Both the position numbers and the translations under genes were made by a program. A stretch of DNA of 64,000 nucleotides from positions 1 to 64,000 of IMG/VR virus record IMGVR_UViG_3300028591_000012, one strand, 5' to 3'. Every line of letters begins with the position of its first letter. The first letter of the stretch is position 1. This stretch comes from a virus. Taxonomy: Duplodnaviria > Caudoviricetes. The notes beneath the pieces were generated by a model. The model was not told where the DNA came from. It searched no databases and saw only the letters and a list, made by a program, of their open reading frames with translations. Positions 47,738 to 59,721 of this stretch are shown here, piece by piece.

Positions 47738-47811
47738 GTTCATAATAGTAAACAGACTGTTTATAATAATGAACTTACATAAAATATAGTTTATAATAAT
47801 AAACTTGTCAA
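47738..47811 (-). promoter_or_regulatory. Leftward promoter TTGACA-N17-TATATT with three GTTYA-N6-TRAAC operators
   Basis: Operators at 47738-47753, 47759-47774 and 47789-47804. Confidence 0.75.
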
Positions 47812-47824
47812 CTATTATTATAAA

Positions 47825-48952
47825 CTAAAGAAAAAGTGACAGTAACTTATCCTGTAATTCAGCAACATCATCAAAATGTTCTGGAAGAAAGTTGGCATAA
47901 CGCTCGGTCATACTGTTTTTTCCTGAAGAGTGACCAAGTACACACTTCACCTTTATTTCACTTATTCCGTTTGCAAGCAGATATGTGTTTACGAAGTGTC
48001 TCAAAGAATGAAAGGAAAGCCCCATTTTTATACGGTCTTCACGTTTACTCAATCCGCAGTATTTATAGAATGTTTTTCTGTAAGTGTCCTGAGCTTCTGT
48101 AAAAGCCATATTACCGTTTCTTCTAATGCAGGTATCAAGCAGAACATAAATGCGCGGACAAATACGCACCTTTCTTTTTTCACCGTCCTTGACCGGCTGC
48201 AGAATATTATCATTCATCTGGTCTTTTACATCAACATAAGTTCTGAATAGAGTTTCCCTTCGTATCGCACAAATCTCACTTATTCTCATTCCAGTAACCG
48301 CGGCTACAAGAGAAAATATCTTTCTTTCTTTGTTGTCCCACTTTTTATTAAACGCAGCTTTAAGCTGTTCAACTGTAAATGAAGATTTTGTCTTTGCATT
48401 TACATACATCATAGGAACGGAAACAAATGGATCTGATGTAAGAAGTTTATCAGCCTTTGCGTAAGAGAGGATAATTTTAAGACAGGTACACGACAGATTT
48501 ATTACAGAGTTGGATAACTCCTTTTCAATTAAGCTGGCCCTGAACTTCTTTATATGAGAAGGCTTAATCTCCATAAGCTTTATGTTTTTGAAAAAAGGAA
48601 TTAAAAATGTATCAAGAGTGTGTCTGTAAGCTTTCAGGGTATTCTTAGCAACAGGCTGTTCCTTTCCCTGACCGGCCTGTATTTTATCTGACATCCATTG
48701 TGAGTTATCGTCAAAAAATCCTTTTGCATAAGCTCCGAATGTCATACCCAAAGAAGAGTATAAAAGCCCCTGCGAAAGCAGTTCTGTGCAGTAACATCTT
48801 GCCTGGGTTTTATTGGTTTTACCTGTAGAATGAGCTGTAGTTCTTTCTCCGTCTGGAGAGTAAGTGCGGTAATAATAAACAATCCTTCCGCTTGGAAGGG
48901 TGCGTGGAAATACTGTAAAAGGTTCTCTGTATCTTGGCATCGTAGTGGTCAC
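47825..48952 (-). CDS. int: Tyrosine integrase
   Basis: TGMRISE, FHSLRH, LGHS and terminal Y; N-terminal arm-binding domain (start may be ATG 48940). Confidence 0.95.
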   Translation of the reverse strand: MTTTMPRYREPFTVFPRTLPSGRIVYYYRTYSPDGERTTAHSTGKTNKTQARCYCTELLSQGLLYSSLGMTFGAYAKGFFDDNSQWMSDKIQAGQGKEQPVAKNTLKAYRHTLDTFLIPFFKNIKLMEIKPSHIKKFRASLIEKELSNSVINLSCTCLKIILSYAKADKLLTSDPFVSVPMMYVNAKTKSSFTVEQLKAAFNKKWDNKERKIFSLVAAVTGMRISEICAIRRETLFRTYVDVKDQMNDNILQPVKDGEKRKVRICPRIYVLLDTCIRRNGNMAFTEAQDTYRKTFYKYCGLSKREDRIKMGLSFHSLRHFVNTYLLANGISEIKVKCVLGHSSGKNSMTERYANFLPEHFDDVAELQDKLLSLFL

Positions 48953-57686: not shown

Positions 57687-58445
57687 ATGAGTTTTAATCT
57701 TGTTCACGAAGACTGCTATGAGTTTATACCTACACTTGAAGATAAATCTGTAAATCTTATCGTAACTGATCCGCCGTATAAACTAGGTAACACTAAGGGG
57801 GGGGGCTTGTATAAACTTATTGATGGTGGCTCTCAGGAAGATAACCCTTATAACCGCAAAGCTACTAATGCGATAACACAATTAAAGTCTCTTGATTCTG
57901 TAGATTTTGACGCTACAAAATTTCTCAATTTGATTAAACCAAAGATGAAACAGTTCTACGGTTATTTCTTCTGTAATAAGTTACTGATACCTGAATACTT
58001 AAACTTTGCTGTAGAAAATAAATATTCCTTCGATATATTAGCACTTCTAAAAGCAAACCCGATTCCTGCGAGAAATAATCATTTCTTACCAGATATGGAA
58101 TACTGCATTATGATTCGTGAAGGCGGTACTTATTGGTCAAAAGACGCAAAATTTGATGATTACAGAAAATATTATACAGTTCCTTGCTGTGGTAAGCGAT
58201 TACATCCTGCAGAAAAACCTGTCGAGTTTCTTGAACGTTTTGTACGTGTAAGCTGTCCTGAAGACGGTCTTGTATTTGACCCTTTCAGTGGAAGTGGTAG
58301 TACAGGAATTGCCTGTCTGAGAAATGGCAGGAACTTTCTTGGTTGTGAAAAGGACCAAAAGTTCTTTGAGCTTGCAAATAAAAGATTAAAAGATTTTGAA
58401 GATGATTTGAACGGTGTTGGCGGACTGTTCGAGGGGATTGAATGA
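57687..58445 (+). CDS. DNA N4/N6-methyltransferase (beta class) with internal G9 tract
   Basis: DPPY, HPAEKP and DPFSGSGST. Confidence 0.9.
   Translation: MSFNLVHEDCYEFIPTLEDKSVNLIVTDPPYKLGNTKGGGLYKLIDGGSQEDNPYNRKATNAITQLKSLDSVDFDATKFLNLIKPKMKQFYGYFFCNKLLIPEYLNFAVENKYSFDILALLKANPIPARNNHFLPDMEYCIMIREGGTYWSKDAKFDDYRKYYTVPCCGKRLHPAEKPVEFLERFVRVSCPEDGLVFDPFSGSGSTGIACLRNGRNFLGCEKDQKFFELANKRLKDFEDDLNGVGGLFEGIE
57797..57805 (+). repeat. G9 homopolymer, candidate slippage tract
   Basis: AAG GGG GGG GGC; longest G/C run I saw in this AT-rich window. Confidence 0.6.
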
Positions 58446-59356
58446 CAGAACACGAGTTTACGTTAGCAGACAGAATTGCAAAGATTAAGAGCATAAATGA
58501 GCAGTATGATTTAGAGCATAATGGTTATATCTCATTTAGCGGTGGTAAGGATTCTACTGTACTACACTACCTCATTGATGAAGCTTTGCCGGAAAATAAA
58601 ATCCCTAGAGTATTTATAAACACAGGAATTGAATACAAACTTATCTTACAGTTTGTAAAGGAAATGGCTTCTAAAGATGACAGATTTGTAATATGGACTG
58701 TAGGAAAAGATATTAAAAATACGCTTTTGCGCGTAGGTATGCCTTTTAAGTCAAAAGAACATTCTCATAAACTTTACGCATATAAAAAAGGCTGGATTGG
58801 AGAATCTGTAAAAAAGTATTTTAAGCTTATTCCTAATGGATATATCACTTGTCCAAACAGTCTTATGTATCAGGTTGAAGACGATTTTACAATGAACATA
58901 TCTGACCAATGTTGTTATGAATTTAAAAAGAAACCAGCTTTAGATTATATGAAGCAAAGTGGACGTTTAATTACTCTTACAGGAATGATGAAAGCAGAAG
59001 GTGGTCAGCGTACTTCTTTGAATTGTATCGTTACAGATAAATCAGGAAAGCTTAAAAAGTTTCACCCTATGGCTGTTGTTTCTGATGAGTGGGAAAAATG
59101 GTACATAGAACACAAGAGTATCCAATTGGCTTTGCAAATTAACGCTGTATGGACAGCCAATGCAGCCTGACCTTTTGAAATTGTATGGTGGGTAATAAAG
59201 CTTAGCCAATTGGATACTCTTGAGCAGGTTGCACCTACAGAGAGAAAAAGAGCCGAATGGTTATGGAAGCCAGTTTATGATGAATATAGACGTATTGGTT
59301 ATAGATTAAGAAAAGAAAATAAAGAAGAACAAAGTTTGTTCAAGGATTTAGAATGA
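58442..59356 (+). pseudogene. PAPS/APS-reductase-like (PP-loop, Fe-S) gene interrupted by an inverted 72 bp segment; 304 aa when re-inverted
   Basis: SFSGGKDS, NTGIEY and CCYEFKK.P; stops at 59170 as written; flipping 59132-59203 gives LYYPPYNFKRSGCIGCPY and reads to TGA 59354-59356. Confidence 0.85.
59113..59222. repeat. Perfect 19 bp inverted repeats flanking a 72 bp segment
   Basis: CAAGAGTATCCAATTGGCT (59113-59131) and AGCCAATTGGATACTCTTG (59204-59222). Confidence 0.95.
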
Positions 59357-59721
59357 AAATAAATAGAAATATATTACCTGACAGTGTAATGGTACTTGGA
59401 ACTAAGTATAAGATATTCTACGAGACAGAAGCTCAGCAGCCTAAGATGAAAGGCAATGACGGTTACTGCGAAGCTGTTGCTAAAGAAATACACATTGCAA
59501 GAGATTTGTTTGTTCCAAAAGATGACCCGATGTTACTGAAGGACCTTGCTGAATACGGAAGAACTGTAATAAGGCACGAAATTGTTCACGCTTTCTTCAT
59601 TGAATCAGGACTTGCTCAGAACAGTTCTTATGCAGAAAATGAAGAACTTGTAGACTGGATTGCAAGACAATTTCCTAAGATGGCAGAGTGTTTTGCAAAG
59701 GCAGGTGTAACAGGAAAATGA
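59353..59721 (+). CDS. HExxH metallopeptidase-like phage protein
   Basis: DGYC..RHEIVHAF..ESGL..EELVDWIA.QFPK. Confidence 0.7.
   Translation: MKINRNILPDSVMVLGTKYKIFYETEAQQPKMKGNDGYCEAVAKEIHIARDLFVPKDDPMLLKDLAEYGRTVIRHEIVHAFFIESGLAQNSSYAENEELVDWIARQFPKMAECFAKAGVTGK

Follow-up and report, generated by a model that had tools for sequence, protein, structure and literature searches.

Locus organization

The window analysed here comprises bases 1-64000 of a 104,297-bp IMG/VR virus record with direct terminal repeats, and the gene of interest encodes a PAPS-reductase-like protein. As written, this gene occupies positions 58442-59170 on the plus strand and specifies 242 aa, including the PP-loop motif SGGKDS and a CC pair. 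Upstream lies an N6/N4 DNA methyltransferase gene (57687-58445, plus strand), whose stop codon overlaps the start of the PAPS-reductase-like gene (ATGA); a methyltransferase of this type is usually found near the gene in relatives too. Downstream is a 122-aa gene assigned to phrog_1233 that contains the motif HEIVH (59353-59721, plus strand).

Two 19-nt arms, at 59113-59131 and 59204-59222, form an inverted repeat that is 100% complementary, with 72 nt between the arms. Repeat and segment lie wholly within one coding sequence, and they are found at the same position in about ten related lineages. Read in frame, the left arm encodes (H)KSIQLA and the right arm SQLDTL(E). The 72-bp segment between them (59132-59203) is at present flipped: its minus strand encodes a conserved 24-aa peptide, KLYYPPYNFKRSGCIGCPYSVNLQ, which includes a CxxC motif, and the gene as written ends inside it, with ...TANAA*. 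Reverse-complementing 59132-59203 yields a 304-aa ORF that ends at 59356 and whose TGA overlaps the next ATG at 59353 (ATGA). A preliminary description of this DNA had reported perfect 19-bp repeats around 72 bp, an ORF that stops at 59170 and a flip that restores 304 aa with the ATGA overlap; the repeats were confirmed at their exact coordinates and both reading frames by re-translation. We refer to the restored arrangement as ON and to that of the record as OFF.

The flip is codon-aligned, the OFF frame being read as the reverse complement of each ON codon, and the OFF stop codon comes from a TCA Ser codon of the ON frame. Consequences differ between lineages: here the flipped segment stops the frame at 242 aa, and elsewhere it may be read through as 24 recoded amino acids without the CxxC. 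The C-terminal 50 codons of the gene (59204-59356, plus strand) are open and conserved and are joined to the rest of the gene in ON only. OFF translation ends 183 nt ahead of the next gene, and the translational coupling to the downstream phrog_1233 gene suggested by the ATGA overlap would be lost in this state.

No further copy of the arms with up to 3 mismatches was found in the window (0.02 expected by chance), and the arm pair is the sole perfect inverted repeat of at least 13 nt with a spacer of more than 11 nt in the 104-kb genome. Each arm contains the palindrome CCAATTGG, as described previously, but it is not conserved in relatives. It corresponds to nothing more than a Gln-Leu codon pair and was rejected as a recognition core, being missing from most of the lineages that flip.

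The PAPS-reductase-like protein

The ON gene specifies a protein of about 300 aa, to which the segment contributes LYYPPxNFxRxGCxxCP. The protein matches PF01507 with 45.1 bits against a cut-off of 22.5 and carries SGGKDS at residues 33-38. Across 32 ON homologues, four cysteines (C157, C158, C244 and C247) never vary, and neither does most of the LYYPP...RxGCxxCP motif. The CxxC pair (C244 and C247) lies in the segment, which bears out the earlier statement that the flipped piece carries half of the cysteine set. As judged from sequence and model, the OFF protein would lack this half of the invariant cysteines, and its truncated form would also lack two C-terminal helices.

The structure model of an ON homologue (P0006) has a mean pLDDT of 91.2, and its best Foldseek matches are the PAPS/APS reductases 6vpu, 2o8v, 1sur, 7lhr and 2goy (E values from 1e-6 to 6e-8). 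The ON protein is accordingly predicted to have the PAPS/APS-reductase fold. A weak profile match (E = 0.21) to the Fe-S type APS reductase of Mycobacterium tuberculosis, 7lhr_A, covers residues 155-247 and so spans both cysteine motifs, and the CC ... CxxC spacing of the phage protein resembles that of Fe-S APS reductases. A phmmer search with the 111-aa region reached neither 7lhr nor 2goy. We regard CC and CxxC as putative 4Fe-4S ligands, on the basis of their invariance, the fold match and the weak profile match.

The phage protein shares PF01507, the SGGKDS PP-loop and the reductase fold with the PP-loop proteins CysH, BrxP, SspD and DndC. It is not a bona fide CysH, because its scores with cysH models (20-33 bits) are far under the family cut-offs (154-254) and because no cysteine follows the CxxC in the 57 remaining residues of the restored ORF. 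In assimilatory CysH, by contrast, a C-terminal catalytic cysteine motif follows the cluster region. Weak N-terminal matches were obtained to the PP-loop domains of BrxP, SspD and DndC. The enzyme is probably related to DNA modification, as suggested by the methyltransferase neighbourhood and by the BrxP/SspD/DndC-like PP-loop. The sulfur-metabolism label usually given to this family, that of a 'sulfate-assimilation AMG', is doubtful and probably wrong, given that the gene is located alongside a DNA methyltransferase within modules of phage DNA metabolism.

Two members of the family, P0083 and P0084 (369 aa), have their first ~73 residues, PP-loop included, duplicated in tandem, and show additional PP-loop family matches in the precomputed domain list.

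Orientation of the segment in relatives

A protein search retrieved 4,518 relatives, and orientation was surveyed in the 60 closest protein clusters (63-82% identity). The segment is flipped in 29 of these 60: 19 are truncated at 231-255 aa and 10 read through to full length with a 24-aa stretch recoded. Another 12 clusters are ON with arm residues that permit an inverted repeat of at least 17 nt, and the remainder are ON without repeat potential. In rumen viromes, the flip leaves roughly one in two gene calls of this family truncated or recoded. Counted by members, there are ~49 distinct flipped sequences and ~36 repeat-bearing ON sequences. Relatives below 63% identity are all ON, none of them with repeat potential. 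Likewise, relatives from IMG/VR and GTDB at up to 57% identity, the latter mostly Firmicutes MAGs and a few others, are all ON, with the CxxC segment on the gene strand and 5-12 matching arm bases. This distribution identifies ON as the native orientation.

The feature is spread over a clade of roughly 100-kb ruminant-gut phages. A blastn search with the gene gave no match among INPHARED phages, and a single-protein scan of IMG/VR returned 3 loci; close relatives were found in ENA and Logan. On a maximum-likelihood tree built from the 222 N-terminal columns that precede the arms, 20 changes of orientation are required, and the starred branches (SH-aLRT of at least 95) force 11 or more of them. 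Supported sister pairs with one ON and one flipped member are P0011/P0024, P0043/P0045, P0004/P0006, P0003/P0012 and P0054/P0058. The preliminary description had proposed a true inversion that switches the gene off, and the many diverged relatives flipped at exactly the same arms agree with it.

A single inactivating inversion, which would make the gene a pseudogene in this genome only, could be entertained on the grounds that this genome shows OFF only and that the exact ON junction of the strain was found in none of the JGI metagenome or IMG/VR contigs. This reading is hardly tenable against the 29 flipped clusters, which belong to many lineages and imply at least 11-20 independent changes. 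Moreover, all truncated alleles examined retain the 50 downstream codons intact, and purifying selection in the ON frame persists in the flipped alleles (see below).

Near-identical pairs in both orientations

Three sets of near-identical DNA sequences, each with ON and flipped copies, are distinguished by precisely this segment. The ON relative L090 and the flipped L085 have identical 19-nt arms, and their segments are identical at 69 of 72 positions once re-flipped. For the ON copy L181 and the flipped L179 (= L184), which originate from a pair of JGI metagenomes numbered close together (Ga0247611 and Ga0247609), flank identity is 98-99%, and 110 of 110 positions of the arm-segment-arm unit match in reverse. 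A third comparison, between L176 (ON) and L095 and L177 (both flipped), involves only 13-14 perfectly matched arm bases. Here the mismatched junction bases read A...A in the ON copy L176 and T...T in L177; they travelled with the segment, and the exchange therefore took place inside the matched arms. In natural DNA, then, the element occurs in either orientation.

Inverted repeats are known to yield fold-back chimeras, and such reads, threaded by an assembler into a flipped path, could in principle imitate an inversion. Several observations make an assembly or library artefact of this kind very improbable. With a length of at most 19 nt, the arms fall short of the k-mers used (k=31 in Logan; k141 in MEGAHIT, judged by the contig name k141_). 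The 127-nt terminal overlap of the record from which the window is taken exceeds the whole 110-nt unit; if this overlap reflects a final k of 127, as we infer, the flipped path was built from reads that span both junctions. Identical flipped proteins turn up again across samples, studies and assemblers (MEGAHIT, Logan and JGI), on contigs of 80-108 kb, and flips occur only where arms exist. A search for both orientations in a single sample found no such pair; within one 90% cluster, ON and flipped sequences traced to different runs.

Selection on flipped alleles and reversal

The flipped alleles bear the imprint of the opposite orientation. In pairwise comparisons of ten such alleles, differences within the segment number 616, 158 and 297 at ON-frame codon positions 3, 2 and 1, respectively, and the ON-frame peptide is intact in all ten. 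The downstream 50 codons stay open and conserved in truncated alleles. The excess at third positions indicates that these lineages have been selected in the ON state and therefore that the flip reverses. Frequent return to ON is to be expected, as the same arms serve both directions. The idea of a reversible ON/OFF switch, put forward in the preliminary description, thus draws support from the near-identical ON/flipped pairs as well as from ON-frame constraint in flipped alleles. We are highly confident that the segment truly inverts, has done so repeatedly and can revert. Whether selection maintains the switch as phase variation is a separate question, and we place the likelihood that it does slightly short of even.

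Evolution of the arms

In the ten lineages for which DNA was available, the arms measure 13-19 nt; up to 8 positions distinguish those of one lineage from those of another, yet complementarity persists. Across these lineages, 94.7% of arm cells are paired, and 10 of the 19 pairs have changed on both sides. None of 500 shuffles attained this, and slid controls were ~35% paired. G-T wobble accounts for 3 of 190 cells, the other paired cells being Watson-Crick. Variation is uneven along the arm: the inner 10 nt differ at most positions among the lineages that flip, and the outer 9 nt, CAAGAGTAT, are kept in most. Direct reading of the arm alignment revealed no conserved internal dyad.

Complementarity has been preserved within the limits of a protein-coding sequence, in several cases at the cost of an amino acid. 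Ile ATC with Asp GAT has become Ile ATT with Asn AAT, a synonymous change in one arm matched by an Asp-to-Asn replacement in the other; Ser AGT with Thr ACT has become Tyr TAC with Val GTA, and Ala GCT with Ser AGC has become Cys TGC with Ala GCA. In L094 the compensation is doubly synonymous (CAA/TTG to CAG/CTG). For codon pairs that encode the same amino acid, the share with different codons is 0.22 and 0.33 in the two arms, compared with 0.52 for the flanks and 0.57 for the segment.

The repeat appears to have grown out of a chance partial match, because the reverse complement of the I-K/Q-L codons is close to the Q-L/F-D codons, and it stops where residue constraints would be broken, at H/N on the left and E/G on the right. 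Covariation of the arms can stem from gene conversion or from 'palindrome perfecting' by template switching as well as from selection. As it has such non-selective sources, it is no proof of an adaptive switch.

Covariation is also the pattern expected of a conserved helix, and the 19-bp stem is predicted to be strongly stable. The repeat might then be kept mainly as an RNA or single-stranded DNA hairpin that serves some other purpose, for instance in stabilizing mRNA, controlling translation or signalling in replication, and the inversions would be incidental and mildly deleterious. We consider this improbable. The scarcity of wobble (3 of 190 cells) fits identity at the DNA level better than an RNA helix, and relatives outside the clade do without the repeat. 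Moreover, flipped forms make up roughly half or more of the distinct sequences that bear the repeat (49 against 36), a share too large for an occasional side effect.

Recombination genes and the mechanism of inversion

The only site-specific recombinase found in the genome is a tyrosine recombinase of the phage integrase family (47825-48940, minus strand), a candidate flipping enzyme that lies 10 kb from the gene. Serine recombinases (PF00239) were absent from the complete 104-kb genome, control genomes being positive, and the RecT and RecA families were absent as well. An ERF-family single-strand annealing protein (PF04404, E = 1.9e-24) is encoded at genome positions 75739-76158, outside the window. 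The earlier remark that no dedicated invertase is visible is therefore correct as far as serine invertases are concerned, but the integrase and the ERF protein qualify it. A perfect 15-nt inverted repeat with an 11-nt loop, terminator-like in appearance, abuts the 3' end of the integrase gene at window positions 47787-47827.

The segment could be a programmed inverton, flipped by a site-specific recombinase that recognizes the arms, either the tyrosine integrase or a host invertase. In the window as well as in L085, L094 and the P0027 contig, the three relatives whose flanks reach that far, a tyrosine integrase is encoded about 2-10 kb from the gene. The best argument for this reading is the nearly constant outer half of the arm, which might belong to a recognition site; several lineages also share the 19-nt outer boundary. 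Size is no obstacle: the preliminary description had judged 72 bp short for recombinase looping, but published bacterial intragenic invertons, presumed to be invertase-driven, are equally small, with a 57-bp example and 11-bp repeats (bioRxiv 10.1101/2023.03.11.532203). Nevertheless, the inner 10 nt of the arms vary among lineages that all flip, one lineage flips with just 13-14 matched bases, and the arms have no conserved internal dyad. The integrase is also present in L088/P0027, an ON-only relative with decayed arms. Finally, the window contains no other copy of the arm and the genome no serine invertase. Taken together, these points leave site-specific inversion as a possible but rather doubtful explanation.

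An alternative is that recombination between the two short, coding-embedded inverted repeats turns the 72-bp piece around in an exchange that would depend on homology from arm to arm and not on an invertase reading a fixed site. Homology-driven exchange seems the most likely route, because the arms differ between flipping lineages and match over as few as 13 nt; that the flip is homology-driven rather than site-specific is nonetheless a proposition on which we are evenly divided. Candidate routes would be replication template switching at a hairpin or cruciform and annealing by the phage ERF protein. As single-stranded DNA, the 110-nt unit is predicted to fold into a strong hairpin at -25.4 kcal/mol (z = -6.7). 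The switch would yield a mixed phage population, with and without the PAPS-reductase-like enzyme. Taken as a whole, an intragenic invertible segment that flips recurrently and reversibly, in a homology-dependent manner, and generates a mixed population is the explanation that we favour, with a moderate degree of confidence.

Comparison with known inversion systems

Intragenic invertons have been described recently, and so far in bacteria only. Published examples include one of 57 bp in BT0375 and one with 11-bp repeats in thiC, inversion resulting in a premature stop or in a short recoded stretch (Chanin et al., bioRxiv 10.1101/2023.03.11.532203; PhaVa). The phage segment resembles them in its size, in its short repeats wholly inside coding sequence and in its outcome, a stop or recoding. 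It differs in belonging to a virus genome, in arms that covary between lineages and in producing both the stop and the read-through recoding at one site in different lineages. The nature of the evidence differs as well: the bacterial cases are known from reads of one culture, and the phage case from comparative genomics of about ten lineages.

The classical phage systems, the G segment of Mu with Gin and the C segment of P1 with Cin, and their Hin-type relatives likewise consist of invertible DNA that gives two gene-product states. They possess an adjacent serine invertase, conserved 26-bp sites and an enhancer, and their kilobase segments swap alternative C-termini of tail fibres. The segment described here, in contrast, is 72 bp long and has variable arms, no serine recombinase and an ON/OFF effect on an enzyme.

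Small inversions associated with hairpins in chloroplast and mitochondrial genomes offer a further parallel, as do quasipalindrome template-switch mutations: all have a short stem around a short loop. In organelles the loop has reversed its orientation again and again among close relatives, and neither a dedicated recombinase nor a fixed sequence is involved; such inversions are almost always non-coding and are treated as neutral homoplasy. In the phage gene, however, the loop codes for what looks like an essential part of the protein and is under ON-frame selection, and the stem lies within two conserved peptide motifs.

For viruses, read statistics have so far done no more than 'suggest' invertons, and our literature search found no report of inversion for this PAPS-reductase-like gene family. 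What is new here is a phage-borne, clade-wide intragenic inverton with covarying arms embedded in conserved peptide motifs. Comparative data support the case unusually well, through many independent flips, compensatory arms in two peptide motifs and ON-frame selection in OFF alleles. Its arms also document how a repeat evolves within protein-coding constraint. The 110-bp unit should provide a tractable model for asking whether small coding flips need an invertase or homology alone.

A second break in a sister clade

The same gene is broken in another way in a sister clade. In P0061 (L185:3660-3700, also L186) the break lies just ahead of the CxxC segment, where the (GA)n run that spans the E-R-E codons lacks one GA unit (2 nt) of its in-frame length, and the rest, SITLCRLYYPPFNF..., is intact in the +1 frame. 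P0074 and P0085 have the same break, judged by their endings. The shortfall may reflect ON/OFF slippage or programmed frameshifting, and it fits the PAPS-reductase-like gene as a contingency target. It is conceivable, although we advance this only tentatively, that these phages phase-vary their own DNA-modification chemistry, with a BrxP/DndC-type enzyme as the contingency gene and different devices in each clade, namely the flip between inverted repeats and the (GA)n frameshift. If true, this would amount to bet-hedging between modified and unmodified virions, useful against hosts with classical or with modification-dependent restriction.

Other features of the neighbourhood

The methyltransferase gene of the window contains a G9 run (57797-57805, codons K-G-G-G), the only run of G or C of at least 8 nt in the 104-kb genome, which has 37% GC. 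The methyltransferases of the relatives L088 and L094 have no run of at least 6 nt; the G9 is strain-specific and may be slippage-prone. As relatives' methylases lack it, the tract was rejected as a conserved second switch. About 1.6 kb downstream of the PAPS-reductase-like gene, a poly-G tract differs in length between two close relatives, being G6 and G9 in L095:4346 and L177:4383, respectively. Mobile elements were also observed in relatives: IS605 OrfB/TnpB (Cas12f-like) genes are present at L085:1-981 and L089:7539-8741, and in L085 an HNH/NUMOD-like homing endonuclease gene lies directly upstream of the PAPS-reductase-like gene.
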